64,000 nt of DNA from a virus (taxonomy: Duplodnaviria > Heunggongvirae > Uroviricota > Caudoviricetes). The stretch lies in IMG/VR virus record IMGVR_UViG_3300047159_000049, one strand, 5' to 3'. The notes beneath the pieces were generated by a model. The model did no database searches. It was not told the origin of the DNA and was given only the letters and a program-made list of their open reading frames with translations. Made by a program: the position numbers and the translations under genes. Below, one piece after another: positions 13,298-61,245 of this stretch; within the stretch, counting starts at the first letter, position 1; each line of letters begins with the position of its first letter.

Positions 13298-13302
13298 CCG
13301 CG

Positions 13303-13327: not shown

Positions 13328-13345
13328 TTCGTGCTTAAAAATAGA

Positions 13346-13376: not shown

Positions 13377-13464
13377 ATCGCCAAAATCCCCTTGTACAAA
13401 GGCTAAATTGGTTGGCGACTTCTGCCATTTCTTGGCTGTGCCTCCTAACACAAAGGCATGATTT

Positions 13465-13524
13465 AAAGACCCATACAGCATCCTATAGGAACTGAATATT
13501 TCACTCCCGCAAGGGATGGGTCTT
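13465..13524 (+). ncRNA. structured element A1: TTTAAAGACCCATACAGCA ... ATGGGTCTT (9-bp stem, about 41-nt loop)
   Basis: Inverted repeat read directly. A paralogous copy lies at 15521. Confidence 0.3.
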
Positions 13525-13570
13525 GCATTATGCCCAAATAAGAGGTATAGTTAAGCAGTCTCAAATAAAG

Positions 13571-13860
13571 GCGCGCACAGCAACCACAACATTTTATCAC
13601 TGAAAATGGTAAGGCCTCATGGCCCCGCGCCTTGTTAAATCTATTCTATATAATCAACATAAATATTAGGCACTTGCAGCAACCAAACCAAACAAAATCC
13701 ACATTTTTGTAAAAAGGTGCCTAGCTAAATCGATCAATACGACTTAAGCGCTCACAGCAATAAGATCACAGAACCAGGCTATTGCTAGCGTGAAAGGCGC
13801 CGGCGTTAAGTAGCAACGTTTCAAAAGCCGTTCGTTAATACGGGTCAGCGCTTAGACAGT
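13571..13860 (+). repeat. four spaced iteron-like repeats GCRCTYRCAGCAA (13571, 13669, 13748, 13847)
   Basis: Read by eye in a 600-bp ORF-free region. Confidence 0.4.
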
Positions 13861-13894
13861 CGTTCTACATGATAACCACAGGAGGTACACAATC

Positions 13895-15517
13895 ATGGAC
13901 AACAAGAATTTCATGGCCGCGATGCAAACCGAGGCCGACAAAGCTCAGAATTATTCTGAGACCGAGAACGGGGCGGTCGGCTACAAGTCGACCGGATCCG
14001 AACTTCTCAATATCAATTTCGCGGCATCGTCGTTCAGATCGATGCCGGAATCCGGAATCGCCGCCAATTTCGAGAAAGCCTATGATGAGAGCAACGAGCT
14101 CGCCATGAAATGGGCCTTCTATCTTCGCGACGTCCGCGGCGGAATGGGCGAGCGCCGTTCTTTCAGAGCCATCATCAAATGGCTCGCCGACAATCATTTG
14201 GATGACTTGAAGAAAGTCATTTCTATGATCCCGGAATACGGCCGCTGGGACGATCTCTTCGTCCTGTTCGGAACCAAAGGCGAATCGGCGATGGCCGAAG
14301 TCGTCAAGGCCGAATGGGCCGCCGAGACCAAAGACGCCGCGGCCAACACCCAACGGATCTACGGCCTTGCGAAATGGGCTCCGTCCGAGAACGCCTCGAG
14401 CGAAGAGACCAAGATGCTCAGCTCCAAAGTCCGCGGGATCCTCGGAGTCAGTCCGAGAGATTACCGCAAGGCTCTTTCGAAGATGCGCGCCATCAGCGGC
14501 ATCGTCGAGACTAAGATGTCCGCCAACGATTGGAAGGACATCGACTTCTCGAAAGTTCCGTCGAAGGCGTCTGCGAACTATGCCAAAGCATTCGACCGCC
14601 ACGATCAGTCGAGATATGAAAAGTACCTCGAGGACGTCAAAGCCGGAGTTGCCAAGATCAACGCCGGAGCGATCCTCCCGCCGGACATCTATCACAAGGT
14701 GTCGACGATGATCTATCTGACATACGGCAAGGCCAACTACCTTCTACATTGCAGCGGATTCAGAAAGATCGACGGATACACCGTGCCCACCCAGAACAAA
14801 GCCGCGGTCGATGCGCTGAACCTCCAATGGAACAGCCTGCCGGCCCCAGCCAAAGATCTTCCTACGACTCTCGTGATCACCGATGGCAGCGGATCAATGA
14901 CCGCATTTGCCACCAAAGGATCCGATGTCATGAACATCGACATCGGCCGAGCGCTCGGCATCTATTTCGCCGAGCACTGCAAAGGCGAGTTCCACAACAA
15001 GATGATCACTTTCAGCGAGCGTCCTGAATTCATCGATCTCGACAAGGCTCCCACTCAGGACCTTGCCGGAAAGATCGCTTACGTCAGCCAATACGACGAA
15101 GTGGCCAACACCGATATCAAGAAGGTCTTCGACCTGATCCTTAAAACCGCCAAAAACGGCAATATGGCTCAGTCTGATCTTCCTGGGACCGTGCTGATCA
15201 TCTCCGACATGGAGTTCGACCAAGGAGCCACCGGACTTGACGCGGCGTACGATCCTAGCGTCAAAGATCCGACTTTGTTCGGCGAGATCGGAGCTGAGTT
15301 CGAAGCCGCCGGCTACAAGCTGCCCCGCCTCGTCTACTGGAATCTCGGATCGCGCTCCGGCACGATTCCGATGACCCAGAACGACAAAGGCGTCTGCCTC
15401 GTCAGCGGATACTCCCAGAACGCCGTCAAGATGTTCATGGACGGAGACACGGACCCCTACAAGGCCTTGGTCAAAGTCCTAATGTCCGACAGATACGCCG
15501 CGGTCACCCTCAAGTGA
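13895..15517 (+). CDS. vWA-domain protein
   Basis: MIDAS-like VITDGSGSMT. Preceded by RBS AGGAGG. Confidence 0.6.
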   Translation: MDNKNFMAAMQTEADKAQNYSETENGAVGYKSTGSELLNINFAASSFRSMPESGIAANFEKAYDESNELAMKWAFYLRDVRGGMGERRSFRAIIKWLADNHLDDLKKVISMIPEYGRWDDLFVLFGTKGESAMAEVVKAEWAAETKDAAANTQRIYGLAKWAPSENASSEETKMLSSKVRGILGVSPRDYRKALSKMRAISGIVETKMSANDWKDIDFSKVPSKASANYAKAFDRHDQSRYEKYLEDVKAGVAKINAGAILPPDIYHKVSTMIYLTYGKANYLLHCSGFRKIDGYTVPTQNKAAVDALNLQWNSLPAPAKDLPTTLVITDGSGSMTAFATKGSDVMNIDIGRALGIYFAEHCKGEFHNKMITFSERPEFIDLDKAPTQDLAGKIAYVSQYDEVANTDIKKVFDLILKTAKNGNMAQSDLPGTVLIISDMEFDQGATGLDAAYDPSVKDPTLFGEIGAEFEAAGYKLPRLVYWNLGSRSGTIPMTQNDKGVCLVSGYSQNAVKMFMDGDTDPYKALVKVLMSDRYAAVTLK

Positions 15518-21326: not shown

Positions 21327-22895
21327 ATGGCAAACATTGAACAGGCGAAACGAATCGCCAAAATCGCCAGCTATCTCAACATAGTTGACGGACACAAAGG
21401 ATTAGCGATCACACCGCTGATCTCAGGAGCTCAGGGCATCGGCAAATCGCAGATCTGCTCTGGAGCCGCCAAGGAAATGGGTGGATTCGGATTCACCATT
21501 GAAGGCGGCACCCTCAAGGACGGCGAGATCACCGGCCTTCCGCTTGCTTATCACGATCCGGTAACCAATGAAGACAAATTCAAATTCGTTCCGTATCACG
21601 TCACTTATTCGGTCATGAAGCTCCAAGACGAGATCTATTCTCACGCCACCAAAGAAGGCTTCCTCGGCGGCCGCGTTCGCATTATCGAAAAAGACATCAC
21701 AGATACTTTCAAAGGCCCCGATGGCAAAGATACTACCAAGGTCATCGCGCATGCCGGAGACACCGTTGTTTTCGATACGAAAGGGCACGTCTATCAAGTG
21801 GTCAGCAAATGGACCAATGAAGAAGCTGCCGTCAAAGGCGATCAGAATAAGCATCAGTTCGGCGAGGATCTCCTTCCTGAAGTCAAGCGCGAGCTCATCG
21901 AATCCGGAGACATCAAGCCGGTGATTCTGTTCTTCGATGAAATCAACCGCACTCCTCAAGAGACCATGAAGGAGCTGATGAACGTCATCCTCAACCGCGA
22001 GGTCAACGGCTACGAATTCCCGTGGTGGGTCTCCATCATCGCCGCCCAGAACCCGAGCTCTCAGAACTCGAGCTTCTCCGTCAACCAGATGGACCCTGCG
22101 CAGCTCGACCGTTTCATGAAGATCAAGGTCAACCCCGACTTCGAGAAATGGTGCCAGTGGGCGCTTGACCATGGCATGAACCTGGAATATCTCCAGGCGC
22201 TCACCGCGGCCAACTCCGGCCTTTCCAAGAACGACAACAACACGGTGTTCTGCGTCAAAGACGCCGGCACCGAAGATACCGAGAACATGGATCCGTCTCC
22301 ACGGTCTCACGAAATCTGCTCGAACATCATCAGCGGATACGATCTGGTCAAGTCCAGCAATCTCTTCACGAAGGAAGAGAAGGAAAGCCTCGACGCCGAT
22401 ATCGAGACCATGATCCTCGGCAAGATCGGCACCACCGCCGGCAACTCGATTCTCAAGTGCTTGCAAGATAAGAGCTCCCGCATCAATCCGAACGAGGTTC
22501 TCACCGGCGCCAGCAAAGAGATCGACAAATCGACCATGATGAAGCTCTCTCAGATGCGCTTCATGGCGAAGACGATCATGAGCCGCAGCATCGTCAACTA
22601 CATCGCAGACAACTACGATGCTTGGTTCGCAGCCCGCAAGGCAAATCCGAAATTCTTCGACAATGTCTTGGGCGCCGACGGCCAGTTCATCCAATTCGTC
22701 AAGTCCCTCGACCGCGCGAATGAGGTTGACCTCTATCGCTACGTCCGTGGCAAGCACACCGCTGAAGGCCGCGATCTCCGCCACGAGCTCGACGACGGCA
22801 AGTGCGCGCGGCTCGCTTCGGCGTTGATCAACGGCGTCAACTCGTCCTGCGAAAGCATCGACAAGCTCGACGCGATGACCAATCCGAAAAAATAA
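21327..22895 (+). CDS. MoxR/CobS-like AAA+ ATPase (AAA_5)
   Basis: Walker A GAQGIGKS. Walker B VILFFDEINR. AAQNP sensor. Confidence 0.65.
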   Translation: MANIEQAKRIAKIASYLNIVDGHKGLAITPLISGAQGIGKSQICSGAAKEMGGFGFTIEGGTLKDGEITGLPLAYHDPVTNEDKFKFVPYHVTYSVMKLQDEIYSHATKEGFLGGRVRIIEKDITDTFKGPDGKDTTKVIAHAGDTVVFDTKGHVYQVVSKWTNEEAAVKGDQNKHQFGEDLLPEVKRELIESGDIKPVILFFDEINRTPQETMKELMNVILNREVNGYEFPWWVSIIAAQNPSSQNSSFSVNQMDPAQLDRFMKIKVNPDFEKWCQWALDHGMNLEYLQALTAANSGLSKNDNNTVFCVKDAGTEDTENMDPSPRSHEICSNIISGYDLVKSSNLFTKEEKESLDADIETMILGKIGTTAGNSILKCLQDKSSRINPNEVLTGASKEIDKSTMMKLSQMRFMAKTIMSRSIVNYIADNYDAWFAARKANPKFFDNVLGADGQFIQFVKSLDRANEVDLYRYVRGKHTAEGRDLRHELDDGKCARLASALINGVNSSCESIDKLDAMTNPKK

Positions 22896-42653: not shown

Positions 42654-44442
42654 ATGAATAGCGACATTGATTCTTACGCAATCAAAATGCAAATCAAGAA
42701 TCCTTCAGACTTTCCTAAGATCGACGGACTTGGGGCATACGCATCGGCCCTAATGAGCATGAACGGGATCACGGCTGATTCCTTTTTCTCGTCCCTACCA
42801 GACACCAAGATGCATTACGAGCTAGAAGAATGGATGAAGATCATGGAGCCTATGCCTGGCCAGCATGATTTCTCGGACATGGTCCTCAAGAACAAATCGC
42901 GCCATTTCTGCGTGATCGGGGATTACGACTGCGACGGAATCATGGCGACCGCCATCGTGGCCAAATCACTGAGATTGGCCGGAATCAAATGCGATTTCAT
43001 AACCCCGAACAGATTCGTCGACGGATACGGCATGTCCGTAAAGCACGTCACCGAAGCCCTTTCCAAAGGGGCCAACGCGATCATCACCGTGGACAATGGA
43101 ATAACCTGCAAAGACGAGATCGCCTTCGCCAAGGAGCATGACGCGATAGCGATCGTAACCGACCACCATATCTCGCAAGGACCGATCCCGGCCGATCTCG
43201 TCTGCGACCCTTTCTGCGACGGATCAAAATTCACCGAGATCAGCGGAGCTACCGTGGCGTTCAAGCTATGCCGCCAGCTTCTCCTTGACAAAGGATTCGC
43301 TGATTCGCAGCTGAAAGACATGGCCGCGATGGCAGCCATAACCGTGATGTCGGACTCGATGCAGATGATCGGCGAGAACAGAATCCTCGTCAAAGCCGCC
43401 CTGGATTACCTCAACTCAGAAGAGAACGATCCGAAGACGTTCTCGAACAGACTGGCCAGGATGATGGGATACTACCGCTTCCCGTCAGACAGCGGGATCC
43501 TTCGCAGATACACCGTGTCTGGTCTGCAGTTCTCGCTGATCCCGGTCGTCAATGCGGTCAACCGCATCCTCGGAGACCCGACCAAGCTGGTGTCAGACAT
43601 CGTCAAGATACTCGACGGAAACGAGCCATCCGAGGATCTCGGATCAAAATACGTCGAGATCAACAACCTCCGCAAGCAATGCAAGAAGGATCTGCTGAAG
43701 CAATACCATCCGAACGGAGACAAGATCGCGATCGTCGTCCTCCCAGGATCCGACACGATGAACTATTCCGGGATGGCCGGCCTCGTCGCGTCGCAGATAG
43801 CCGAGGACGAAGGCAAGCCCGCCCTCGTCGGAATCGACGACGGCCATACGGGGAAAAATAAAATTTTCCGGACGAAGCATCAACGGATTCCCTCTATACG
43901 ATTTCCTGATGGATCTGTCCAAAGACCATCCTGAGCTCAACATGGAATTCGGAGGCCACAGCGAAGCGCTTGGCGGATCCGTGCCCAAGCAAAAAGTCCC
44001 GGCTTTCAGAACGGCCGCAATCAGGGCAATGCTTTCCGTCAATCTCCCGAAATCCGAGGAAACGGTCGTGTCCATGTCCACCGGATCGGAAGCCATGAAA
44101 GCCTATCTCGACTTCGCCCCGTATGGCAAGGGATTCAAATTCCCTGAGCTGTACACCGAAGGCAATATCGTCAGCGGAGGATTCGACCGCAGATCGAGGA
44201 CGTTCACGCTCGATTCGGCGCCTAGCCTCAAAATCAAATGCTACGACAAGGAGCTGTACAAATACATCTCGGAGATCTATTACAACAATCTCTGCTCCAA
44301 AGTCAAGATCGATGCGGTGATCTCCATCTCAGACGGGGATGACGGCATCCCATCTCCCGACCTCCGCAAGATCTGCAACATCGACAAAAACGTCAAATTG
44401 GCTGCGGATCTGCGGGAATATCAGTACAACTCTAGAAAATAG
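42654..44442 (+). CDS. RecJ-like DHH/DHHA1 single-strand exonuclease, apparently frameshifted near 43855
   Basis: VIGDYDCDGIMATAI, TVDNGI, VTDHHI motifs. After the frame change come SGRSINGFPLYDFL and FGGHSEALGG (DHHA1). Confidence 0.7.
43850..43869 (+). repeat. AT-motif copy GGGGAAAAATAAAATTTTCC
   Basis: Coincides with the RecJ frameshift site. Confidence 0.65.
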
Positions 44443-47643: not shown

Positions 47644-47664
47644 ATTCCTGTAGGAGTGATAATC

Positions 47665-49164
47665 ATGCGAAAGACATGGCCAGACAAAGACGAGATGATC
47701 CGATGGATAACTGAAAACTCAGCCACCAGGACAGACGTGATGGCGCATTACGGATTCTCAAAGCAATCCATGCGCACCATCAGCGCCAAATACGGGCTTA
47801 AGGAATATCTCAAACCCATCTCCGAAGACGAGAGGATCGCCAGAAGCAAGGAAGCTGTCAAAGCCAAGTACGGCGTCGACAACGTCTTTAGGCTGAAATC
47901 GATCCAGGACAAATCCGCCAAAACCAACGTCGAGAGATACGGCTTCAGCTCCCCCAACAAGAACAAGGAAGTCGTCGCTAAGCGCAAGAAGACCAATCTA
48001 GTCAGATATGGCTATGCCATGCCGATGATGAACAAAGTCATAAAGGCCAAAGCCAACAAGACGAACCTGGAGAAGTACGGATCGGCATGCGTCCTGGCGT
48101 CTCCGGAAATAAAAAATAAAATCTCCAAGACGAGCGACGCCAAATACGGAACGCCTGTCATTCAGTCGAGAGATCTCACAGACATCGGCAAATCAGCCAC
48201 GCAATCAAAGGAAGCGATGTCCGCTTTCATAGAATCGCAATCAGACCGCACCAGCAAGCATCTCATGGACGAGCTCGGATACGAGTCAAGAACCGGATTC
48301 TTCATAATGATCCACAAGTACGGCTTGTTCGATCTGCTTGACTGCGACAAGGAAACGTCTTTCGCCGAGAAGGAAATAGCCGATCTGATAGAGTCGCTCG
48401 GATTCAAAGTCGATCGCAACAGACGCGATCTTCTTGGCGATGGGCGCGAGATAGACATCTACGTCCCAGACAGGCATCTTGGGATCGAATACAACGGGAC
48501 GTATTGGCATTCCGATCTCAAGAAGGATGACAAAGAGTATCATCAGCGCAAAGTCCTCGATGCCGAGAAGAACGGAATCCATCTGATTCACATCTACGAA
48601 TTCCAATGGGAGAATCCCGTCCTTAAGCCGATAATCATCTCAGTCGTAAAACTGTTCTTAGGCCTTAACTTCAATCGCGTATATGCGAGAGACTGCGTCA
48701 TCAAGACGATCCCGGAAAGCGTGAGCAGGCCATTCTGCGAGAGCAACCACATGCAAGGATATGTCTATGCCAAAATCACTTATGGGCTGTTCTCCAAATC
48801 AGGAGAGCTTCTTCAGCTGATGAGCTTCGGAAAGCCAAGATACAGCCATCTGGCCCAATGGGAGATCATCAGAGGATGCCCAGGATCGAATAACCTCGTC
48901 GTCGGAGGCGTGTCCAGGCTGTTCTCGCATTTCGTCAAAGACAACAGCCCGGAGTCCGTGCTGTCATACTGCGACCTCAATATGTTCGACGGCAAAGGAT
49001 ACAAAGCCATCGGAATGAATCTCGTCGGCGTGACAAAGCCAAACAAATGGGTGATCCTCCCAGACGGAAGGGTCATCGACAGAGACCCGTCAAAGTACGA
49101 AGAGTACAAAGGCTATCCGTCCATATACGGAGCTGGAAGCGCCGTGTACCTGTGGAAAAAATAA
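47665..49164 (+). CDS. homing-endonuclease-like protein: NUMOD-like K..TN..KYG repeats plus DUF559/Vsr-like PD-(D/E)xK domain
   Basis: Repeats ...KTNVERYG / KTNLVRYG / KTNLEKYG / SDAKYG. IDIYVPDRHLGIEYNGTYWH...GIHLIHIYE. Confidence 0.45.
   Translation: MRKTWPDKDEMIRWITENSATRTDVMAHYGFSKQSMRTISAKYGLKEYLKPISEDERIARSKEAVKAKYGVDNVFRLKSIQDKSAKTNVERYGFSSPNKNKEVVAKRKKTNLVRYGYAMPMMNKVIKAKANKTNLEKYGSACVLASPEIKNKISKTSDAKYGTPVIQSRDLTDIGKSATQSKEAMSAFIESQSDRTSKHLMDELGYESRTGFFIMIHKYGLFDLLDCDKETSFAEKEIADLIESLGFKVDRNRRDLLGDGREIDIYVPDRHLGIEYNGTYWHSDLKKDDKEYHQRKVLDAEKNGIHLIHIYEFQWENPVLKPIIISVVKLFLGLNFNRVYARDCVIKTIPESVSRPFCESNHMQGYVYAKITYGLFSKSGELLQLMSFGKPRYSHLAQWEIIRGCPGSNNLVVGGVSRLFSHFVKDNSPESVLSYCDLNMFDGKGYKAIGMNLVGVTKPNKWVILPDGRVIDRDPSKYEEYKGYPSIYGAGSAVYLWKK
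48105..48126 (+). repeat. AT-motif copy
   Basis: Intragenic, encodes EIKNKIS. Confidence 0.55.
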
Positions 49165-49201: not shown

Positions 49202-52200
49202 TCAGTAGTCCCAGATGGCTTTTATCATCCGCCCTAGCTCAACGAGTACTTTGTTCGAGTAGAGGTATGAGAAGAAGTCAGATGTCATGCGTCCTAATAT
49301 TCCTGTAGGAGTGCATACTGCATTGCATGGAAGCTCGCTATGATATTCCGACGTAGGAGATTCTCCTGCGGCAAACACCTTAGACACGACTCCCTTGAGA
49401 GCGCTCGTGTAAGTGATCTTGTCTCCAGGGCCGATCGGGTCGAGTATCTCAACGTAGTATTCGATGAGAACGCCTTGATACTGGCTTCCGTTGACCTTGG
49501 ACTTTCCTGAGCTGTCGGTTCCCATCTGGTTGGTCGTGTCTATATGCACGCTTCCGCCATGAGGGACGTTGTATTTGGTGAGGAACTCAGATCTGTCAAG
49601 CTGGATGCCTTTGTATTCCGATATGAGCTTTCTGAGGGTCGGGCTGAGCTCAGCCAAAGGCATATTGTAATACACCTTCACAGAAACGACGCTTCCGGAG
49701 TATCTAGAAAGGATCTTATCGCGTGATATCTCGTTCACGGCATTGGCGCCCAAGACATCTTTCATGTTGTTCATGTATTCGGCAGTCGATGGATCGAGAT
49801 AGCTCTTGGAGTATTCCAGAAGGGTATCCTCAGATTCAACCTTGTCTCCGGCATGAACCGTGCTGTAGATCGTCGCATTGGGGCCAAGCGCCACCGATGT
49901 CATCATCGTGAAGTAAGACGCGCATTCGTTTGACAGAGTCTCATCGACCATCGTCGAGTCCTCAAACGCGCCATCCGATGCGGCAAGCGCAACCTTGGCA
50001 AGCGTTCCAGGCATATAATCGATGTCCTTTCCCTTTCCGCTGAAATAAGACGGGTTGTAGGCAATGACGTCGCCTTTATTGAATCTCTCGCCTTGGCTGT
50101 ATTTGATGAGGAAGTGCTCTTTGATGAAGAATCCGCTGTTCGAGTTCTTAACGAGAACGTCGCCGAGATCGATCGCGTCGTTCGTCCCATCGTCATATGC
50201 CAGAATGGCGATGTGCTTATTGGTGTCGATTGTCTTGATTACTCCGTTCTTCTTGGCTTTGAAGCAGAAGTCATCGGATATCATGAACGCCATCGTCTTA
50301 TTTATTCCTGATCCGACAAGCTGCTTATGGGCTTTGACGACGGGCATCGTGTGCTTAGTCTGCGAAATCTGCATCGCTGAGCGAGGCGCATCCGACTGAG
50401 CCGACACGAACGATGCCAGCATCTCGGCAGGGCTTAGGATGTTCGTAGCCGACAGACTGCTCTTATCGACGTCTGGGATGTATCCGCGGATCGTCGAGAT
50501 CTTAGGATCATATGAAATCGATCGGCTCATTCCGGCCGTTCCGCCGAACTGAGTGTCGTTTCCTGACAGGAATCCGATCATGCTAGGATCATAAGCGCGC
50601 ATCTTCATGGTGTACGCCTTGTCCAGGTTGACGCCGTTGAATCCCTTTGCCGTGCAGTTTGAAAGGCTTTCAAGCTCAAGCACCGGGTTCAATACGCTTG
50701 CCGGATTGACGTTTACCTGGTTGGTCAGGGCCTTGATGAGGGCGTTCTTAGGAAGATCAAGCCCTCCTCTGTGCCCATTAAGGCGGCCGTTCTGATAGTT
50801 CTTGTATGCGTCGGCAAGGACTTTGTACAGAACAGCGTATATCTCTTCGTTTCCTCTGATGCGGTAGTTTCTTGCGTCGTTTAGCGATCGGCAGGTATTG
50901 GTCGTCAGAAGCGTGTTGGCGAATAAGAGCATCCCGACGATATCCGTAGGCTGCTTAAGATCTTTCTGAACGTCGTAGGTAATAGGATCGACCATCGCCG
51001 ACAGATGAAGCTTGATGGTGTTTCTGGCATACGAGTTGTATCCAAGGACATTGACGAAGAAATTGACATACGGATCCTCAGTGTCAAAGTCTCTGAAGTC
51101 GTATTGGTCGGTCTCCATCAAGCGAAGGACGTTAAGAAGCATCGTGTTCTTGAGATTGTCCAGGAAATAAAAATATTTATCCCTGAAACGGATCTCGACG
51201 TAATTGGAAAGAAGCGTTCTGTCGCGCTTGTCTGAAAGCGTGTATTTGACTCCGTATCTTCTCAAAACGCTGGTGATTCCTTCCATGAATCCGCACAGAG
51301 AGAAGATCGGATAGAACTGCTCGATCATCTTGGCTCTCGAATAGACGAAGCTCTTTCCGATAGACGGGATATCCGCATTCTGCAGCCCCAATGCAGCCAG
51401 AACGAATGCCTGGATGCAATCGGCAGCTTTGTTGTCAGACGCGATAGATCCTCCGTCTTTAGTCGGAATGGCCAGATAGACAGCTCCGTCAGGCTTGATG
51501 TGAATGACGTTGGATGAGTTCTTCTCGATCGCTATAGGGGTGTCCATCGAATCGTCTTTGAAGAATCCGTCTGGGAAGTCCATCGCGGATATCTTGCTCA
51601 TGATGCGCTGACGATCGAGGTCGATATCGTATCTCGGGGCGTCTATCGAAGAGATGCTAGACGCTAGCTCTTCATATTCGAAATCGCTGACGTATCTGTC
51701 GTTATGGACAGAATTGTCTCCCCAAAGGACAGTCCATCCCTTGGCAGAAGGCTCGGCGGTTTTGATCATCTTCAGAAGACGGACGTTTCTGCGCGAAACC
51801 TTCTCATTGGTGCGTTCAACCGTGATCTTGCTGTATGATGTCGAGATCTCGACGACGTTTGGCTTGGTCTTGACGATAGGAAGACGGAGAAGCTGCTTCT
51901 CGATGAACATCTTGTTTCCGTTGATGAAGATGAATCTGCCATCGATCACCTCAGGGATGTCGAGCGTGAATCCAAGCGACGATCCGTCGTCAGCTTTGTA
52001 ATGAGCCGTAAGGGTCATCTTCTTATTGAAGTCATCGCTCGAGTCAACGATGTTGATTCTGTCCATCGCGATCGGAAGGAACTGCGAGTTTGAGAAATGG
52101 GTGAGGATGCTCATCAGGTCTTTCTTGGCCTGCTTGGTGTTATAGTCTTCGTCAAGCGCCATCAATGAGCTATGCCTAACGCGGCTGTCGAAGTTGGCGA

Positions 52201-53539
52201 CATCGACGTCTATTTCCTTGTCATCGAGGAGAGACTCGGCATCGACGGCTATAGGAGAAGCCTTGCTTTCATCATCGTCTTTAGCGGCATATTTCGCAGC
52301 CGCCGCGGATTTCAGAGCCGACAGAACCGATGGCTTTACAGCGGTTCCGGCAGTTTGCTTCGATTTGTCTTCCGGCTCTTCTTTATCGGATGCAGACGAT
52401 TTTTCGAAATCATCTATGACTTTGGCCTCTTTCTCAAGGCCCTTGGCAAGCTGATTGAGCTTTTGGCTGTTGCTCTTCTTGGTCTCGACGTACTTAATGG
52501 CAGCCGCTTTCACATCGGGATCCGCTTCGATCGTTGTCTTTAGATCGTCATAGGACTTTCCGGCATTCTCTTTCTTGGAAAGATATCCGTCGATCTTCTT
52601 ATCGACGACAGCCGCGATGTCTCCTTCGTCTTTGGTGGCGGCGTCAAATGTCTCAGGAGCTCTGATCTTAAGTGACTTAGAGACTGACGTGAATACGAAA
52701 TTTTTTATTTTTTCCTTCGCTTCGTCGCTCTTGTCGGAGTCATCAGCCTCATCAGATCCATCGGAATCGACGTCATCTCCTTCTAGGGCCTCTCCCTTAT
52801 TCGCGTTATTGAGACGCGATATCTTAAGGAGATAGTCGTTGATCGATTTCTCAAGAGTCGGATCTGACGGATCCATGACCACGACAGCCTCGTTGTTAGG
52901 ATTATAGAAGATGATCCTGTCGAACATCTTATAGACGGACATATCGGCAAGGCCTTTTCTGAGCGTAAGAAGGAATAATGACATAGGGGTCACGTCTTCA
53001 ACGCTTGTGTCAAACAATCCCATTTTGGCGACTGATCCGAGTTTGTCAGAATAGTCGCAAATAGGGAAAATCAAATAATTCTTCTGATATCCTACTGAGG
53101 AAACAGCTTCAGGAAGGAACTCTTCCAGGAAGTCCTTCATCGCGATATACCTTGCAAATCCCTGCTTGTTTTCACGAAGAGCAAGGGTTTCTTTGAAATC
53201 AGGAATCATATCGTACACCAGATTTTTCTCGGCATACGATGTGACAAATGGCTTTCCAATTTTTAATCTACCGGAGCTTTTGTCTCTGAGCGAGGCATAA
53301 ACGGCAGCTTGATCCTCGCGAACGATCTTTCTGTTTAAAGGGCGGACCACACGAGGCGTGTACATGCAGTAAAGCTGCTGAGGCCTAAACAGCATATGAG
53401 TCATCACCGAAGCTATGTCGTCATAAGAATCCGTGGCCAGAACCACAAGATTTCCGTACATCTTTCTCTCTGTGTCGAAATTGATCGTGCGCCCTAGAAG
53501 GATACGATCCAACTTCATCTTACTCGGTGATACGAACAT
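49202..53539 (-). CDS. giant divergent RNA polymerase beta-subunit-like protein (1445 aa)
   Basis: RAYDPSMIGFLSGNDTQFGGTAGMSRSIS resembles the beta R(D)VHP..YGR.CP.ETPEG.N.GL.NSLS region. GDKITYTSALKGVVSKVF resembles GDK...RHGNKGVVS. Confidence 0.45.
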   Translation of the reverse strand: MFVSPSKMKLDRILLGRTINFDTERKMYGNLVVLATDSYDDIASVMTHMLFRPQQLYCMYTPRVVRPLNRKIVREDQAAVYASLRDKSSGRLKIGKPFVTSYAEKNLVYDMIPDFKETLALRENKQGFARYIAMKDFLEEFLPEAVSSVGYQKNYLIFPICDYSDKLGSVAKMGLFDTSVEDVTPMSLFLLTLRKGLADMSVYKMFDRIIFYNPNNEAVVVMDPSDPTLEKSINDYLLKISRLNNANKGEALEGDDVDSDGSDEADDSDKSDEAKEKIKNFVFTSVSKSLKIRAPETFDAATKDEGDIAAVVDKKIDGYLSKKENAGKSYDDLKTTIEADPDVKAAAIKYVETKKSNSQKLNQLAKGLEKEAKVIDDFEKSSASDKEEPEDKSKQTAGTAVKPSVLSALKSAAAAKYAAKDDDESKASPIAVDAESLLDDKEIDVDVANFDSRVRHSSLMALDEDYNTKQAKKDLMSILTHFSNSQFLPIAMDRINIVDSSDDFNKKMTLTAHYKADDGSSLGFTLDIPEVIDGRFIFINGNKMFIEKQLLRLPIVKTKPNVVEISTSYSKITVERTNEKVSRRNVRLLKMIKTAEPSAKGWTVLWGDNSVHNDRYVSDFEYEELASSISSIDAPRYDIDLDRQRIMSKISAMDFPDGFFKDDSMDTPIAIEKNSSNVIHIKPDGAVYLAIPTKDGGSIASDNKAADCIQAFVLAALGLQNADIPSIGKSFVYSRAKMIEQFYPIFSLCGFMEGITSVLRRYGVKYTLSDKRDRTLLSNYVEIRFRDKYFYFLDNLKNTMLLNVLRLMETDQYDFRDFDTEDPYVNFFVNVLGYNSYARNTIKLHLSAMVDPITYDVQKDLKQPTDIVGMLLFANTLLTTNTCRSLNDARNYRIRGNEEIYAVLYKVLADAYKNYQNGRLNGHRGGLDLPKNALIKALTNQVNVNPASVLNPVLELESLSNCTAKGFNGVNLDKAYTMKMRAYDPSMIGFLSGNDTQFGGTAGMSRSISYDPKISTIRGYIPDVDKSSLSATNILSPAEMLASFVSAQSDAPRSAMQISQTKHTMPVVKAHKQLVGSGINKTMAFMISDDFCFKAKKNGVIKTIDTNKHIAILAYDDGTNDAIDLGDVLVKNSNSGFFIKEHFLIKYSQGERFNKGDVIAYNPSYFSGKGKDIDYMPGTLAKVALAASDGAFEDSTMVDETLSNECASYFTMMTSVALGPNATIYSTVHAGDKVESEDTLLEYSKSYLDPSTAEYMNNMKDVLGANAVNEISRDKILSRYSGSVVSVKVYYNMPLAELSPTLRKLISEYKGIQLDRSEFLTKYNVPHGGSVHIDTTNQMGTDSSGKSKVNGSQYQGVLIEYYVEILDPIGPGDKITYTSALKGVVSKVFAAGESPTSEYHSELPCNAVCTPTGILGRMTSDFFSYLYSNKVLVELGRMIKAIWDY
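51163..51183 (+). repeat. AT-motif copy GGAAATAAAAATATTTATCCC
   Basis: Intragenic in the - strand RNAP-like gene. Confidence 0.6.
52697..52715 (-). repeat. AT-motif copy
   Basis: Intragenic in the - strand RNAP-like gene, encodes KEKIKNF. Confidence 0.55.
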
Positions 53540-53598
53540 TATCTTGATGCCTCAAATTAGTCTGCAATAATCTATTGTTCGAGGCCCCTTTGCCAGCA

Positions 53599-53622
53599 GG
53601 GGAAAATAAAAAAAAGATCCCC
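53599..53622 (+). repeat. AT-motif copy GGGGAAAATAAAAAAAAGATCCCC
   Basis: About 60 nt upstream (T-run orientation in - sense) of the RNAP-like gene start. Confidence 0.65.
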
Positions 53623-54025
53623 ATGCCGCACGAATGCAGCTCACGACCGGGGATTCAGCATAGGATACAGCTTCTGGCTCGTTGTTATGCAGTTGTCGTA
53701 AGCAAAGCGGTTTGATACGGACTGATTCAGAGTTCGGCCATACCCGTTAGATCTCTGATCTCATTGTGCGCATGATCAGGCATGCTACAAATCCTATGCT
53801 AATTTGACAACTTAGCGCAGCCACTGGCGTGAATCACGCAGTTGGACTATTTGTGCAGCATGCAAGCTACCTTCGTGTATAGCGCATGTTTTAACGGCCG
53901 CCGTATGCCAGAAGTCTTAGGTTCACGGCCGGCAAGTCAGCCCGCTAGAAATCAAACCCTAGCCAAGCAATCCCTGCAATAAGACTTTACCATACGGCTT
54001 CCGTCTAGTCAAATGCAAGATAGCG

Positions 54026-54051
54026 GATATATGATCTTGTTGAAAGAAAGG
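54026..54051 (+). promoter_or_regulatory. GATATATGAT-family element copy 5
   Basis: GATATATGATCTTGTTGAAAGAAAGGG, about 50 nt before the start at 54102. Confidence 0.45.
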
Positions 54052-54101
54052 GCACTGATCTAATCCGTGCTTTGCCTTTTTTCAGAAAGGAGTAAATAAA
54101 A

Positions 54102-54404
54102 GTGTCAGATTACGACAAAGACAAGAAGATCCATGAGCTGGAAGCCACAATCGACAGCCAGCATCTAATGCTTGAGCAATACGCAAAGTTTTACATTCTG
54201 TCAAAAGCGGACCGGGAAGAATACTCCAAGAGCATCCTCAGCGTTCTTAAGATATGCTCGGATATGCTTTCAGTTGCGCTCGATGAGAATACGCCAAGCA
54301 AATACAAAGACATTATGATCAAAGACTGTCAGCAGTCGCTGCAGAAACTGTCAGACAGCATCGGAAAAACTCTGCCGTCTAAAGGCGAGTCTGAAAAGAA
54401 GTGA
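54102..54404 (+). CDS. hypothetical protein
   Basis: GTG start after a GAAAGGAG RBS. Confidence 0.4.
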   Translation: MSDYDKDKKIHELEATIDSQHLMLEQYAKFYILSKADREEYSKSILSVLKICSDMLSVALDENTPSKYKDIMIKDCQQSLQKLSDSIGKTLPSKGESEKK

Positions 54405-54411
54405 TGCCATA

Positions 54412-54762
54412 ATGCGAATGAGACATCACCACGATAATACTCTGCACGCGATCAAGCGAACGGATGAGAGGATGGGCGTTAGAGATAACGAACAGGCCAA
54501 TCGTCTGATCGCCGAGGCGCGAAATAACGGAAAGCTCTGGTACGAGCTTCCGCCGGGCCCGACTGCTGACTTTGTCAAAAGAAAGTCAGATAAGCAAGGC
54601 AAGATAGTCAAGTACTACAAGGGATGGATCTACGTCTTCTTCAAGACGAGCAAGAGATGCATCACCATGTATGATTCTGCCGTCAAATTGCCTGAAGACT
54701 CAAACAATAAGCCTTCAAGCTCTGACGGATATTCAGATCCTGCTCTTAAGAGCGTCAGCTGA
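54412..54762 (+). CDS. hypothetical protein
   Basis: ATG start, basic protein. Confidence 0.4.
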   Translation: MRMRHHHDNTLHAIKRTDERMGVRDNEQANRLIAEARNNGKLWYELPPGPTADFVKRKSDKQGKIVKYYKGWIYVFFKTSKRCITMYDSAVKLPEDSNNKPSSSDGYSDPALKSVS

Positions 54763-55975
54763 CATTATCCAACGATGCGGATCACCGAAAGCATCTTTCG
54801 GCTACTGTTTAGACTGCTGTTTTTATGGACTTGCGATAGGCTCGCATTCTCTGAATCCCGCTTGCGGATATCTTGCTTAGGTCGTCTTCGACTGGCGTAA
54901 GATATCCAGCAAGCTGTAGATTCAGATCGTTTGCGAGCGTCGCACCGCGCTGACTGGCTTACATGGCACCGGTGATCTTCATCTCAGAAGTGCAGGCACT
55001 TCTGAAGATGAGTTCATCCGGTGCATCCGCCAAGCAGATCTGCTAGAGCTCGTGCGCAGCGGGGATCCAGGCATGGATGCCTGGATCACCGCTGCCATGT
55101 AGCTCTTGCATCTCTGCTTCACCACAGCGCTAAGTCCATAGGCTCTTTGAACTGAGATCCTGATCATGAGCTTCAGACCGTTAAGTCACATGCTGTGGCT
55201 AAACGGTTGAATTCATGATCAGGATTCATTTCTAATTATTAAAGGCGCATCGTCTAGAAATAATAAGGCATAGTTTTGCGCAGGATTCCTGCGATTGCGC
55301 GATATGATTCTCAAACATGACGCTTTCCCAAATCCAGAAGCTTTCGGCTTGAACCGGCGTTTTGCGCACGGAGCGAACGCCGATTCAAACACAACAGCCT
55401 CTGGACTGGGACGCATCTGTCTTTCAATTATCGTATGCCTTTTGCACAAGCATGGAAAATACCGGGGCATCCTCGGTTGTACTATAAGCTATCGCTTAAA
55501 GCCTTACGCTATCTGATGACGACCATGCGATCCGGATCTTTGACGTCGGGCACAGACGCCTCGTTAAATATCCTGATCCCCAGGCGTCAACAGATAAGCT
55601 TCAGACCAAATAGCGATATCCCGTCCGGCCCGCGAAGAACTCCCCGCTCTACAGACATAGCCAAGCAACTATTTCTGTTTCGTGGAGGAGTTCACACGCG
55701 GGCCCGATCGGGATACGCTGTCATGTGAAAGCATGCTTGAGATACACAATTAAGTCTGTGTCGTAGTAAATCGCTGAGGCTCTCAGCAGTTCAAATGCCT
55801 GAAGCGCATGTTCGCTTCTTCCCTCAGGCGCCTCGCCTGGGACTTGCTTTTGGAACTCTCTCAACACGGAATATTCAAGATTTCCAAACTTGAGAACGGC
55901 GTGCAAGTCCCCGCAGGCGCCTCAGGTCAGAGTTTCGATATCGTATCTCGTACGGCACTAAAAAAGCCAGACAGT
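54763..55975 (+). other. 1.2-kb ORF-poor, hairpin-rich region closed by an intrinsic terminator (candidate structured ncRNA locus)
   Basis: No ORF over 100 codons. A 15-bp perfect palindrome at 54981-55013. A palindrome at 55066-55086. A 13-bp inverted repeat pair at 55155-55226. Confidence 0.4.
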
Positions 55976-56004
55976 TAGTCTGGCTTTATTTTTTTTGTTT
56001 CCCG
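55966..56004 (+). terminator. intrinsic terminator closing the ORF-poor 54.8-55.97 kb region
   Basis: AGCCAGAC-AGTTAG-TCTGGCT plus T-run. Confidence 0.55.
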
Positions 56005-56400
56005 CGAAGCCATCAGGCATTGAATGCCGTAAACTTGCGATTTAAGGCTACTAATATCAGAAGTCATGTCCTTCAATGAAGAAAGCCCATATGCGTTGAC
56101 GCGATTTGAATACTCAGTCTGAACTATGGCTTTTGTAGGATGCCCGTCGACGTAATTAACCTGGTTGGGATATATGTCTCTGAATGACCCATCCTCAAAG
56201 AAATCCTTGTCTTGGACGTATCCGCCATCGGTGATCTTTATGAAATCATTCTGCACCCTATTGCACAGCATCGAAAGATTGGCTTCTAGATTGTCCAGTC
56301 TGGCGTTTATCTCGTCGATGCTTTTTAAGATATAGACATCGATCTGAGTCACGACGATCGCGTATCTGGGATCTTCGTAATAATCATTTGGCATATTCAA
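55975..56400 (-). CDS. hypothetical protein
   Basis: ORF of 141 aa, ends at a bidirectional terminator. Confidence 0.45.
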   Translation of the reverse strand: MNMPNDYYEDPRYAIVVTQIDVYILKSIDEINARLDNLEANLSMLCNRVQNDFIKITDGGYVQDKDFFEDGSFRDIYPNQVNYVDGHPTKAIVQTEYSNRVNAYGLSSLKDMTSDISSLKSQVYGIQCLMASRETKKIKPD

Positions 56401-58713: not shown

Positions 58714-61245
58714 TCACTTCGAATGTGAATATTTTTGTTTTTCCGGAATCCTTGAGAACAGATTATCCATAGTGAAGTACACGACAGGCATCGCCAGAAC
58801 GCTGATCAAAATCATCAGCCAATCCCCGCTGGATAATGCGCTAAGCGTTCCTCCGAGATCGAATATCTTTGAGAACGCGTCATAGTACGCGCCATCTATT
58901 TTTATAACCCATAAATGCATTACGCCATCGGATGCGATTTTGAAAAGGCTGGTAGAGCATCCGCCAAACGCGCTGAGAGGAAGGAACATCGAGTATATCA
59001 CGGCCCCAGCCATGTTGCCGATGAACACTCCGGACCTATATCCGTTCATAGGAACGCTTATGCGGAACAGAACCATGAACGACGCTATCGAATAAAGCAT
59101 GCAGATCAGAGTTTTGTCTTTCATCGTCGGAGCGACTATGCTCCATGTCTGCCCGCCCGAAAGCCATATCTTTCCAACAAGAACCGACCCGGCAAGCAGC
59201 AACGCGGCCGGTATCGCTCGCACCATGATATTGCGTTTGAATGATCCTGAAAGCCTTTCCTGGCAAGGCTCGACCGACAGGAAGAACGAGGCGATCCCGA
59301 TGACGAATGTCTCCATCAAGGCAAGATTTTCCATCTCGAGAGGGAAATAATAAAATAATCCGCACAGCGTCATTATCCCAAGAAGCATCATCGAGAAAGT
59401 CTTCATCAGGAACAAAGTTGAAGTCCTGGTTATGTTGTTGACGACTCTGCGCCCTTCGCCTATAGCAGCCGGAAGATCATCGAAATTAGAATCGATGAGA
59501 ACGATGTTGGAAACCGCTTTGGCGGCATCCGCCCCTCCGGCCATGGCGACCGAGCAATCCGCTGTCTTCAGAGATATGACGTCATTGACCCCGTCTCCGG
59601 CATACGCCACTTTATGGCCTTGCTTCTGAAGAGCCTTGATGATCTTAGCCTTCTGCTCCGGGCTAACGCGCCCAAACACATTGAAATCCGCCGCCATCTG
59701 AGGGATATCCTCATCTCGGATCCCCTCCATAGAAACCGCCTTGTCCCAATCTGGGACTCCGGCTTCTTTGGCGATCTGCGACACGGTTGATGGATTGTCG
59801 CCAGAGATGATCTTGACGCTGACGGAATTGTCTTTGAACCATTTCATCGTGCTGATGACCGCTGGCCTGACGCCATCCCTAAGCACTATGAGAGCCAGCG
59901 GATCGATGTCAGCCGATCTGTCCTCTCCTTGCGGCTGCAGGCTTCCATGGCGCCTTGCGAACAAGACGACCCGAAGCCCTCTGGAAGCCAGCTTCGCGTA
60001 TTCTGAAAGTATGATAGAATCCCCGGTGATATATTCCGGCGCTCCCAAAACGTAAATGAATCCGTCAGGCATCCCGGCAGAAGACGTCTTCCTGTCGCTG
60101 GAGAACTCAAGCACTTCCTGAGCCGTCATCGACCCTACGGATCCGAACTGAGCTATCAGAGCGGCTGACGTCGCGTTGCTCGTCTTGAATGAGCCGATGA
60201 AAGATGACAGAAGATCGACGAGCTGATTGTCTTTGACCTTTCGGCTGAGGCTGATTATGGAATCAACCTTCATATGCCCGTCCGTAAGGGTTCCCGTCTT
60301 GTCGAACGCGACGGTGTCTACCCTGGCCAGCATCTCGATGGAATACATGTCCTGAACGAGCGCTTTCTTCGACGCTAATTTGATTATTCCGACGGCAAGC
60401 GCTATGGACGTAAGGAGAATCATCCCTGAAGGAATCATGCCGACCATCATGGTCCCTGTCGGGATTATGACGTCGGACTCAAACGAAGTCGTGTACGCCG
60501 CCGGCATCCCGTTGGTAAGCCAAAGCTTAAGCCCCAGGGCGAATCCGAGCGGGACGATGATGCACGCCAGAACCTTGAGCAGCCACATGATCGTGGTCAT
60601 CAGCTCAGACTTGGCTCTCTTGAATTCCTTGGCTTTGTTTTGGATGCCGGACGCGTAAGTCGATTGCCCCACGGCCGTAGCCACGATGGAGCATGACCCC
60701 GAAATGATGAACGACCCGGCAAGAACCTTAGCCCCGGATTCCTTCTTTATGGCGTCGGCCTCTCCGGTGAGAAGCGACTCATTGGCTTCGGCGCTTCCGT
60801 CGATGACGTCTCCGTCGACAGGGATCTGATCGCCAGATCTCAGAATGACGACGTCTCCCAAAACGATGTCGTCGGAATTTATTTTTATTTCCTTCCCGTC
60901 TCTGCGAACAGATGCCTTAGATGAGCACACTATCGACAGCTTCTCTACGGCTTTCTTTGACCTGATTTCCTGGATGATTCCGATTGCCGTATTGAGGACA
61001 AGATTGATGCAGAATCCGTATTTCGACCAGTCATCCACCCCGAACACGAGGAAGCATATGGCTATGCCGGCAAGCAACGCGTTGAAGAATGTGAACACGC
61101 TGTCCCTGATGATATCCCAATAGGACTTCGAGCATTTCTTGTTGGTGACGTTTGCCAATCCATCTGACTTAAGCTGAGCGGCTTTCTCAGACGTAAGCCC
61201 CTGCGAACGGCTGTCGACGATCTTTGCATTTTGGTGTGTTTTCAT
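58714..61245 (-). CDS. P-type cation-transporting ATPase (P2-like)
   Basis: DKTGTLT, TGEADAI, GDGVNDV motifs. N-terminal GLTSEKAAQLKSDG. Multiple TM segments. Confidence 0.85.
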   Translation of the reverse strand: MKTHQNAKIVDSRSQGLTSEKAAQLKSDGLANVTNKKCSKSYWDIIRDSVFTFFNALLAGIAICFLVFGVDDWSKYGFCINLVLNTAIGIIQEIRSKKAVEKLSIVCSSKASVRRDGKEIKINSDDIVLGDVVILRSGDQIPVDGDVIDGSAEANESLLTGEADAIKKESGAKVLAGSFIISGSCSIVATAVGQSTYASGIQNKAKEFKRAKSELMTTIMWLLKVLACIIVPLGFALGLKLWLTNGMPAAYTTSFESDVIIPTGTMMVGMIPSGMILLTSIALAVGIIKLASKKALVQDMYSIEMLARVDTVAFDKTGTLTDGHMKVDSIISLSRKVKDNQLVDLLSSFIGSFKTSNATSAALIAQFGSVGSMTAQEVLEFSSDRKTSSAGMPDGFIYVLGAPEYITGDSIILSEYAKLASRGLRVVLFARRHGSLQPQGEDRSADIDPLALIVLRDGVRPAVISTMKWFKDNSVSVKIISGDNPSTVSQIAKEAGVPDWDKAVSMEGIRDEDIPQMAADFNVFGRVSPEQKAKIIKALQKQGHKVAYAGDGVNDVISLKTADCSVAMAGGADAAKAVSNIVLIDSNFDDLPAAIGEGRRVVNNITRTSTLFLMKTFSMMLLGIMTLCGLFYYFPLEMENLALMETFVIGIASFFLSVEPCQERLSGSFKRNIMVRAIPAALLLAGSVLVGKIWLSGGQTWSIVAPTMKDKTLICMLYSIASFMVLFRISVPMNGYRSGVFIGNMAGAVIYSMFLPLSAFGGCSTSLFKIASDGVMHLWVIKIDGAYYDAFSKIFDLGGTLSALSSGDWLMILISVLAMPVVYFTMDNLFSRIPEKQKYSHSK
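59342..59361 (+). repeat. AT-motif copy GGGAAATAATAAAATAATCC
   Basis: Intragenic in the P-type ATPase (encodes GLFYYFPL). Confidence 0.6.
60875..60892 (-). repeat. AT-motif copy GGAATTTATTTTTATTTCC
   Basis: Intragenic in the P-type ATPase (encodes KEIKINS). Confidence 0.6.

Follow-up and report, generated by a model that had tools for sequence, protein, structure and literature searches.

A few described systems resemble, each in its own respect, the gene-free and hairpin-rich stretch of phage DNA that is the subject of this work. GOLLD and ROOL are phage-borne, structured elements of at least 500 nucleotides (nt) that, like this stretch, contain no open reading frame (ORF), and their function was unknown at the time of discovery. 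The sponge RNAs CsrB and RsmZ share with it the presence of many stem-loops, which in their case lie on one transcript and jointly titrate a protein. [quoted passage not shown]

The stretch in question covers positions 54763–55975 of a 64-kb window, which here denotes the whole stretch of DNA that was analysed (64,000 nt of the IMG/VR virus record IMGVR_UViG_3300047159_000049). It extends from the base right after the stop codon of a small gene, ORF2, to the first stop-codon base of a convergent ORF of 141 amino acids (aa) on the − strand, and it folds into a chain of about 11 long hairpins, hereafter the array. Arrays of this kind are kept in three diverged phages. We tentatively favour the reading that the array is transcribed and serves as double-stranded RNA (dsRNA) irrespective of its sequence, over that of a cis-acting element at the DNA level.

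Structure of the array and its upkeep in diverged phages

The minimum free energy of the whole stretch is −495.7 kcal/mol, compared with −337.6 ± 9.3 kcal/mol in dinucleotide shuffles (z = −17.1), while three coding controls of 1.2 kb gave z-scores of −1.4 to −1.9. Local z-scores in 150-nt windows lie between −3 and −10 all along 54775–55975. Furthermore, 11 of the 31 most extreme 120-nt folding windows of the 64 kb fall inside the array, which makes up 1.9% of the sequence. The array is the sole cluster of extreme local folding energy across the 64 kb, and the original prediction of a highly structured region is thus confirmed.

When the base-pair span was limited to 150 nt, the array resolved into a chain of independent, near-perfect long hairpins connected by linkers of a few nt (Table 1). 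Most of the long hairpins have a folding energy of −40 to −66 kcal/mol each, with roughly 30–50 paired positions and few mismatches. The loops mainly comprise 3–4 nt (at most 4 nt in 27 of 37 hairpins). Complementarity runs on into the loop in 8 of the 37, approximately the rate expected by chance, which makes them true hairpins rather than perfect palindromes. Since the loops are real spacers, the selected object would be a folded single strand and not a perfect palindrome of duplex DNA. The loops of the long stems are unrelated to one another, each hairpin of the array occurs only once in the 64-kb window (elsewhere, only chance matches of 13–16 nt were found), and direct repeats within the stretch are confined to two-copy matches of 10–22 nt, consistent with chance. 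Among the inverted repeats singled out by the original prediction, the palindrome at 55066–55086 is present, centred at 55075, and forms the tip of a repeat with 43-nt arms (55032–55119). The nested 13-bp arms are likewise found, at 55157–55169 and 55213–55225, with 100% complementarity and an inner hairpin nested between them. The claimed 15-bp stem at 54981–55013 holds only in part, as the perfect pairing spans 10 bp (54984–54993/54996–55005) and reaches 15 bp only with one bulge.

The window encodes an RNA polymerase (RNAP) beta subunit of 1445 aa (49202–53539, − strand), which matched the PHROG multisubunit RNAP beta families (E 1e-142). Its closest cultured relatives, at ~36% aa identity, are those of the Bacillus jumbo phages AR9, PBS1 and vB_BsuM-Goe21. 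The window derives from a jumbo phage that is uncultivated and a distant relative of AR9 and PBS1. The DNA surrounding the array has no match in the phage collection, and the array stretch has none in the plasmid collection. The ORF2 protein was found on 23 metagenomic contigs, the longest in its cluster measuring 219 kb. Ten retrieved contigs of this cluster are at least 99.95% identical to the window, which gives 11 near-identical strains in all, too alike to be informative. The sole single-nucleotide polymorphism (SNP) among their arrays lies at 55574, in the stem of hairpin H8, where the window and two other strains carry T and eight carry G. In this stem, G regains a C-G pair and T leaves a C-T mismatch.

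Beyond these strains, a collection of 5.8 billion proteins yielded only three diverged loci, namely the window, contig L002 and the truncated contig L020. RNAP beta has one relative at 68% identity (P0001), the next being found only at 45%. P0001 is carried by contigs L002–L007, which are identical to one another in the array region. L002 is syntenic with the window, comprising a P-type ATPase gene, diverged small genes, a gap, an ORF2 homologue, an ORF1-like gene and the RNAP beta gene. The L002 gap (7325–9217) is 1.9 kb long, follows the ORF2 homologue, in the same place as in the window, and has a terminator at its end; its sole gene call, of 48 aa, is implausible. L020 is a contig of 1515 nt, on which an ORF2 homologue with 58% identity is followed by 805 nt without ORFs up to the contig end. 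In relatives at ~45% RNAP beta identity the gene order is different and no such stretch is present, and scans of the IMG/VR and JGI metagenomes with the flanking proteins returned no relatives.

Alignment of the window, L002 and L020 stretches by blastn, tblastx and MAFFT fails, and only a short hairpin, h0, and a block containing TAAAGG can be aligned (by MAFFT). Yet the L002 and L020 stretches are also made up of tandem hairpins of 60–150 nt with energies of −40 to −80 kcal/mol; domains of at least 10 pairs number 18 in L002 and 6 in L020, which is truncated. The z-scores of the whole stretches are −17.5 and −7.6, respectively. Pairing is thus maintained while the sequence turns over, as a sequence-independent need for duplex would predict. 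The neighbouring proteins have diverged to 23–58% identity across the lineages. Over such divergence, the data call for something that selects many long intramolecular duplexes regardless of their sequence.

The short hairpins behave differently from the long ones in that part of their sequence is fixed. The homologues of h0 are GTCGGGG-CAT-CCCCGAT in L020 and CCGAAG-CAT-CTTCGG in L002, and in all three phages the hairpin lies within ~25 nt past the ORF2 stop codon. Its CAT loop and closing G-C pair are invariant; elsewhere in the stem, most pairs have changed on both sides. Other short hairpins of the type G-(C/G)AT-C occur at 55461 in the window, near 8900, 8369, 7932 and 7571 in L002, and at 1188 in L020. 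All of them have the orientation of ORF2, and in L002 none is found outside the stretch. CAT or GAT forms nine of the 19 three-nt loops counted over the three stretches, and the complementary ATG and ATC form none. In a set of ten short hairpins, G-SAT-C (S, C or G) is invariant and double changes affect six of the seven stem pairs, a score that 0 of 500 shuffles reached; this count is partly circular, as the set was mostly found as hairpins. One further short hairpin of the G-GAT-C type lies outside the array, at 43628–43644 (ATCCGAG-GAT-CTCGGAT), within the ORF at 42654–43934.

The counterparts of the TAAAGG block are TTCATTTCAATTAAAGGCGC in L020 and TAAAGGTGCGC in L002, and its distance from h0 is ~455 nt in the window, 451 nt in L020 and 513 nt in L002. 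The AT-rich region around it (55225–55275) extends over only ~50 nt, and its L002 counterpart is not AT-rich. A scan of IMG/VR and GTDB genomes for TTCATTTC..ATTAAAGGCGC returned 44 loci, approximately the chance expectation, none of which encodes the flanking proteins.

Five independent assemblies end inside the array: L001 (54258–55573), L019 (~55697), L006 and L007, which start at L002 positions 8417 and 8915 inside the L002 stretch, and L020. Most simply, these breaks reflect assemblers failing at palindromes, so more relatives may hide in fragmented contigs. As a separate observation, L001 and L020 (Logan runs SRR35183702 and SRR32022426, respectively) are short contigs with small genes and part of the array, which would also fit assembled transcripts if they came from RNA libraries.

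Some further observations were made at these loci. Two short segments of the array are identical, on the same strand, to parts of a 52-nt segment of the RNAP beta gene (55935–55950 to 51621–51636, 16 nt; 54864–54877 to 51585–51598, 14 nt); the two lie 23 nt apart, and a + strand array RNA would be antisense to the RNAP beta mRNA at both. Antisense targeting of RNAP beta was considered and set aside as probably chance, given that L002 has nothing comparable. In L002, a called gene of 196 aa (423–1013, − strand) contains short perfect hairpins at high density, and the smoothed folding score of that locus is lowest there; its translation looks ordinary, and it has neither a window homologue nor a convincing Pfam match. 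The P-type (E1-E2) cation-transport ATPase of ~845 aa, at 58714–61245 (− strand) in the window and kept in L002 (2457–5006), is unusual cargo for a phage.

Table 1. Features of the hairpin array and of the small unit that contains it (window coordinates).
Feature	Position	Strand	Description
Promoter-like motif GATATATGAT	54026–54035	+	76 nt upstream of ORF1
ORF1, 100 aa	54102–54404	+	Probably coiled coil (by eye, from sequence); poorly conserved
ORF2, 116 aa	54412–54762	+	Conserved neighbour of the array; ~100-aa family
h0, short hairpin CCGAAAG-CAT-CTTTCGG	54785–54801	+	7-bp stem; starts 23 nt past the ORF2 stop
H1, long hairpin	54819–54954	+	136 nt, −64.5 kcal/mol
H2, long hairpin	54955–55032	+	78 nt, −40.0 kcal/mol; includes the 54981–55013 stem
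H3, long hairpin	55033–55118	+	86 nt, −61.5 kcal/mol; includes the 55066–55086 palindrome
H4, long hairpin	55149–55232	+	84 nt, −44.0 kcal/mol; 13-nt perfect arms and nested inner stem
AT-rich conserved block TTCATTTC..ATTAAAGGCGC with TAAAGG	55225–55248	+	Only alignable stretch besides h0
H5, hairpin	55245–55300	+	56 nt, −16 kcal/mol; weakest in the series
H6, long hairpin	55302–55436	+	135 nt, −45 kcal/mol; − strand fold more stable
h7, short hairpin ACCGGGG-CAT-CCTCGGT	55461–55477	+	7-pair stem; one G-T pair, which pairs on the + strand only
H8, long hairpin	55508–55599	+	92 nt, −40.3 kcal/mol; carries SNP 55574
H9, long hairpin	55610–55721	+	112 nt, −66.1 kcal/mol
H10, branched hairpin domain	55725–55815	+	91 nt, −23.3 kcal/mol
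H11, long hairpin	55817–55931	+	115 nt, −47.5 kcal/mol
Bidirectional intrinsic terminator	55963–55997	+	GCCAGAC/GTCTGGC stem within AAAGCCAGAC..GTCTGGCTTT

Coding content and layout of the unit

The original prediction that the stretch holds no credible ORF is borne out by several lines of evidence. Each of the six frames of 54763–55975 contains 14–20 stop codons of all three types, so reassignment of a single stop codon cannot open a frame. The longest ORFs of the stretch (44–97 aa) gave no convincing match in Pfam and PHROG searches, and on the + strand no ORF of at least 15 aa is led by a Shine-Dalgarno sequence. No similarity was detected by tblastx among the window, L002 and L020 stretches, although the adjacent gene was readily detected at E-values of 1e-29 to 1e-40. 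A decayed pseudogene might still be invoked, as might a protein gene that frameshifts, recoding or introns have masked, on the grounds that some public gene calls place a 61-aa ORF at 55721–55906 (− strand) and that the GC-rich L002 stretch contains ORFs of up to 138 aa. However, the 61-aa ORF is not conserved, and the identity of the 11 strains, which come from different samples, across the array bar the one SNP excludes sequencing error. The frameshifted protein gene that had been named as the counter-case to the original prediction therefore finds no support in the stop codon census or in the tblastx, Pfam and PHROG searches, and we consider a hidden gene extremely improbable and effectively refuted.

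At the same time, ~91% of the 64-kb window is covered by ORFs, and 54763–55975 is its longest ORF-free stretch, the runner-up measuring ~600 nt. That gene-packed phage genomes keep a gene-free stretch of 1.2–1.9 kb in diverged lineages points to a function. The window's other convergent junction (49164/49202) spans only 38 nt, the distance between the 3′ ends of the RNAP beta gene and of an HNH/homing-endonuclease-like gene (47656–49164, + strand; PHROG 3339, E 5e-96). This HNH-like gene is free-standing in the window, while AR9-like phages have such endonucleases within introns of their RNAP genes.

The array and the two small genes ahead of it are oriented opposite to the − strand operons on both flanks. 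Upstream of ORF1 lies GATATATGAT, a copy of the motif GATATATSAT, which occurs five times exactly in the window (0.45 expected), always on the + strand and upstream of + strand ORFs (13346, 21250, 54026, 61308 and 62984; a sixth site, 15674, has one change). The distance to the ORF is 35–77 nt for four of these copies and 549 nt for one. In L002 the motif is found at 2383, 9895, 14728 and 16385 (− strand), again consistent in orientation and upstream of ORFs, and its equivalent at the matching place upstream of the small genes is GGATATATCAT. AR9 early promoters also have an AT-rich consensus (PMC5312081). By analogy, we infer that the motif at 54026 is a phage promoter, and GATATATSAT is a candidate promoter consensus of this phage clade. 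The motif is absent ahead of the window's − strand operons, which suggests a separate temporal class, and it is absent from the array stretch. Another copy of GATATATGAT, at 13346, is located within the second-longest ORF-free stretch of the window (13298–13894, ~600 nt), 549 nt ahead of the next ORF (13895). This stretch opens with a terminator-like hairpin (13300–13330), is not unusually structured in the window-wide folding scan, and could be a long leader or another non-coding RNA.

The terminator that the original prediction placed at 55966–56004 on the + strand was recovered as a 10-pair stem (55963–55987) followed by TTTATTTTTTTT. It is the first canonical terminator past the motif at 54026, and the + strand carries the longer of its T-runs. 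Its loop contains the stop codon of the convergent 141-aa ORF. In L002 the arrangement is the same, and T8AT6 is oriented like the array. Of 35 long hairpins, not one has a T-run behind it on either strand, and ordinary terminators, both in the window phage and in L002, combine a short hairpin with a long T-run. All this is read most economically as one unit consisting of promoter, two small genes, 1.2 kb of hairpins and terminator. Its transcription is suggested by the promoter-like motif, the lack of internal terminators and the orientation of the terminator. As a side observation, an A-rich tract, GGGGAAAA(AA)TAAAAAAAAG, accompanies terminator hairpins just past several L002 genes (377–394, 1764–1783, 7329–7354, 14261–14286 and 22663–22684), and related tracts occur in the window at 53597–53621 and 55985–56012 (− strand). 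Together, these tracts and hairpins suggest a common bidirectional terminator design or an additional signal.

Small ORFs that look coiled-coil-like by eye also occupy the position of ORF1 in L002 and L020. The ORF2 protein is 52–58% identical to its L002 and L020 homologues and belongs to a family of 74 representatives, mostly metagenomic, with invariant residues H12, R16, R20, T85 and Y87. Three of 38 family members matched DUF4258 (PF14076), with a best E-value of 0.008, while the window ORF2 itself gave no match to this Pfam model. The AlphaFold model of ORF2 (predicted local distance difference test score, pLDDT, of 65) consists of three helices followed by three strands, and neither the model nor the profile found a significant fold match or a relative in the PDB. 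Three distant members of the family (33–47% identity) lie in ordinary, gene-dense phage contexts with no hairpin array nearby. The association is therefore limited to a small clade, and no partnership of protein and RNA is implied.

Weighing the readings of the array

The array was compared with the known kinds of element. At gathering thresholds, no Rfam family matched anywhere in the window. The best matches at permissive settings, far below threshold, were miRNA (microRNA) precursor models and a terminator-bearing small RNA, that is, generic long hairpins; the miRNA-precursor near-matches score 20–27 bits against gathering thresholds of 83–97 and do not indicate membership. Models of GOLLD, ROOL, HEARO, OLE and other large non-coding RNAs were not listed at permissive E-values (up to 10). 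The degenerate group I/II intron offered by the original prediction is not upheld, as no intron model was matched at E ≤ 10 in 53400–56200 or at E ≤ 1 in the L002 and L020 stretches. ORF2 has its own stop codon at comparable positions in the three phages, with no coding continuation downstream, and the architecture is a string of simple independent hairpins instead of a multi-domain, intron-like fold. The suggested transfer-messenger RNA, RNase P RNA and transfer RNA (tRNA) candidates also came to nothing, with no genes found by ARAGORN and nothing by Rfam. A clustered regularly interspaced short palindromic repeat (CRISPR) or ToxI-type array was rejected in view of the lack of tandem direct repeats of a conserved unit. 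The same holds for an integron attC site, as no pair of core sites (RYYYAAC and GTTRRRY) 40–130 nt apart was present on either strand of the three stretches. An origin with iterons or DnaA boxes was rejected as well, with one match to TTWTNCACA in the window stretch, none in L002 and no direct repeats; moreover, the GC skew has no turning point at the array. Repeats of the miniature inverted-repeat transposable element (MITE) or REPIN type were discarded, since each hairpin is single-copy in the 64-kb window and in 24 kb of L002, and the phage and plasmid collections contain no match. GATC is common in the three stretches and is not among the tetranucleotides enriched over the flanks. No counterpart of the architecture was found in Rfam 15, the phage and plasmid collections or the literature searched, and we rate the array as lying outside the known kinds of element.

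In the reading that we tentatively favour, the stretch would be the non-coding 3′ part of a small self-contained transcription unit that runs from the motif at 54026 to the terminator at 55963–55997. The + strand RNA would form ~11 independent long hairpins punctuated by the short conserved G-(C/G)AU-C hairpins, and the function would reside in the double-stranded stems themselves and not in their sequence. Such an RNA might sequester a duplex-recognising factor or be its substrate for cleavage, the candidates being a host sensor, an enzyme of the RNase III type or some other protein that binds dsRNA; alternatively, its output could be several stable hairpin RNAs. Protein binding or processing may then be marked by the short conserved hairpins. 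An element specific to one strand is suggested by how the unit is laid out, by the direction of the long T-run in two phages, by CAT/GAT loops that occur in one orientation only and by the G-T pair of h7.

Several observations weigh against this reading. Interior single mismatches over the three loci comprise 34 G:T and 41 A:C, which is no RNA-level bias, and the − strand folds 3–4% more stably in all three loci. Both results are equally compatible with a constraint at the DNA level or one that is neutral to strand. However, a single A-C mismatch is cheap in a long helix, so an RNA that has to be mostly duplex need not show an excess of G:U pairs, and the mismatch test is neutral in this respect. 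Three-nt loops, which dominate here, are more typical of DNA hairpins, while RNA hairpins favour GNRA and UUCG tetraloops. Three diverged sequences, one of them truncated, do not allow proper covariation statistics, and the covariation count of the short hairpins is partly circular, most of them having come from a hairpin search. Over the first 450 nt, the hairpin positions of the window and L020 correlate in mountain plots with r = 0.76 near the anchored offset, but r = 0.61 and 0.71 are also obtained at about +200 and +490 nt, so this similarity is unspecific. To our knowledge, no dsRNA decoy of this kind has been described in any phage. Finally, since distant ORF2-family members lack a downstream array, the sequence comparison suggests no protein partner in ORF2.

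The array could instead act as DNA, with cruciforms or single-stranded hairpins that serve replication initiation, packaging or ejection, or recombination, and with transcription being incidental or merely an aid to extrusion. The original prediction had put a non-coding RNA alongside a replication or packaging cis element; we retain the former as the leading reading, in the tentative manner stated above, and place the DNA element second, as a rather unlikely one. The symmetry of the mismatches between strands and the nearly equal folding of both strands are in its favour, as are the short loops, which are typical of DNA hairpins, the independence of the requirement from sequence, and the AT-rich, partly conserved block at 55225–55275 between hairpins. 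The five broken assemblies would fit DNA that is difficult or heterogeneous, but breaks at palindromes are a known technical artefact. Moreover, the lack of direct repeats and iterons, the scarcity of DnaA boxes and the lack of a GC-skew turning point at the site do not suggest an origin. The CAT/GAT loops occur in one orientation, nine to none, a bias that a symmetric duplex element does not need, and the array is part of a promoter-to-terminator unit in which no terminator precedes it. We consider it quite unlikely that the stretch has no dedicated function and is a tolerated spacer at a convergent junction, where palindromes would arise and stay near-perfect through mutation, for instance by template switching or arm-to-arm conversion, or would stem from selfish palindromic elements. 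Such a spacer would explain why the sequence is not conserved, why the length varies from 1.2 to 1.9 kb, why mismatches are symmetric, why the only SNP among the 11 strains just opens or closes one stem pair, and why the region is wholly absent from the relatives at ~45% RNAP beta identity. It is hard to reconcile with compact phage genomes in which the array is by far the largest gene-free stretch, with the upkeep of the same place while the neighbouring proteins diverged, and with the mere 38 nt of the other convergent junction. Unlike mobile repeats, the hairpins are single-copy, and both position and orientation are conserved for h0, for the SAT hairpins and for the TAAAGG block.

The exact position between convergent units and the bidirectional terminator at its end would also suit a transcriptional insulator or an RNA-stability element, in which hairpins halt or slow phage RNAPs or shield mRNA from 3′ exonucleases. 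Although hairpins are the usual device for both roles, one or two suffice, and 11–18 long ones over 1.2–1.9 kb far exceed the need. The long hairpins lack T-runs altogether, the ordinary terminators of these phages have a different build, and the junction at 49164/49202 manages with its short spacer. We therefore regard this explanation as improbable. Returning to the transcribed dsRNA array, a bolder form of it would be a new class of phage long non-coding RNA, that is, an early-transcribed array of at least 10 drifting long hairpins that acts as a dsRNA decoy or substrate and bears G-SAU-C marks. Such an RNA might, for example, saturate or redirect host RNase III, another duplex-RNA nuclease or an immune sensor; we consider this class an unlikely possibility.

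Comparison with known systems

The palindrome-rich untranslated region of T5 is, by analogy, the nearest described counterpart of an element acting as DNA. Like the array, the T5 injection stop signal region extends over more than 1 kb without ORFs in the early-expressed part of a large virulent phage. However, T5-like phages share the sequence of the T5 region, which has direct repeats, eight ordered DnaA boxes and a setting in a terminal repeat, while the array has no direct repeats, a single match to the DnaA box and no sequence conservation. If the array acts as DNA, it could be the first cis-acting replication, packaging or ejection site in AR9/PBS1-like jumbo phages; we know of no such site in this branch.

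GOLLD and ROOL differ from the array in their conserved sequence, their multi-stem junctions and pseudoknots supported by covariation, and their frequent location near tRNA genes. The array, in contrast, is a linear series of simple hairpins with little conserved sequence, no match to a model and no tRNA nearby. CsrB and RsmZ carry a conserved GGA motif in the loops of short stems, whereas in the array only a few short hairpins share a loop (SAT). These G-SAT-C hairpins, with a stem of 6–7 bp, a 3-nt loop with a central purine and a single orientation, may share the geometry of the early hairpin promoters of phage N4. The N4 virion RNAP is a single-subunit enzyme, however, and the window phage encodes a multisubunit RNAP and has its own linear promoter-like motif. 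The type III toxin-antitoxin system ToxIN, in which an endoribonuclease gene neighbours an array of structured RNA, also bears some likeness, as a small gene with a weak relation to DUF4258, possibly RNase-toxin-like, adjoins a long structured array. ToxI consists of tandem direct repeats of ~36 nt upstream of the toxin gene, with a terminator between them. Here, direct repeats are lacking, the array lies downstream, ORF2 is not of the ToxN family, and other members of the ORF2 family have no array.

Whatever its function, the array breaks metagenomic assemblies and leads gene callers to add spurious ORFs (61 aa in the window strains, 48 aa in L002), which calls for caution among annotators. 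If it acts as RNA, phage non-coding RNAs would gain a new kind, a long transcript made up solely of sequence-free dsRNA hairpins. This would suggest that phage and host contend with duplex RNA as a currency, by titrating nucleases or evading sensors. A simple experimental handle would come with it, as the array can be deleted or expressed alone. A likeness of this kind is found in eukaryotic viruses, where the herpesvirus miRNA-precursor clusters and the adenovirus VA RNAs are likewise viral non-coding transcripts with tandem, unique hairpins of 60–140 nt that function as duplex RNA. These RNAs depend on the eukaryotic factors Drosha, Dicer and PKR, and we know of no bacterial counterpart of such hairpin-RNA clusters or decoys. 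In the bolder form of the dsRNA reading, the array would be to bacterial viruses what hairpin and decoy RNAs are to eukaryotic DNA viruses.

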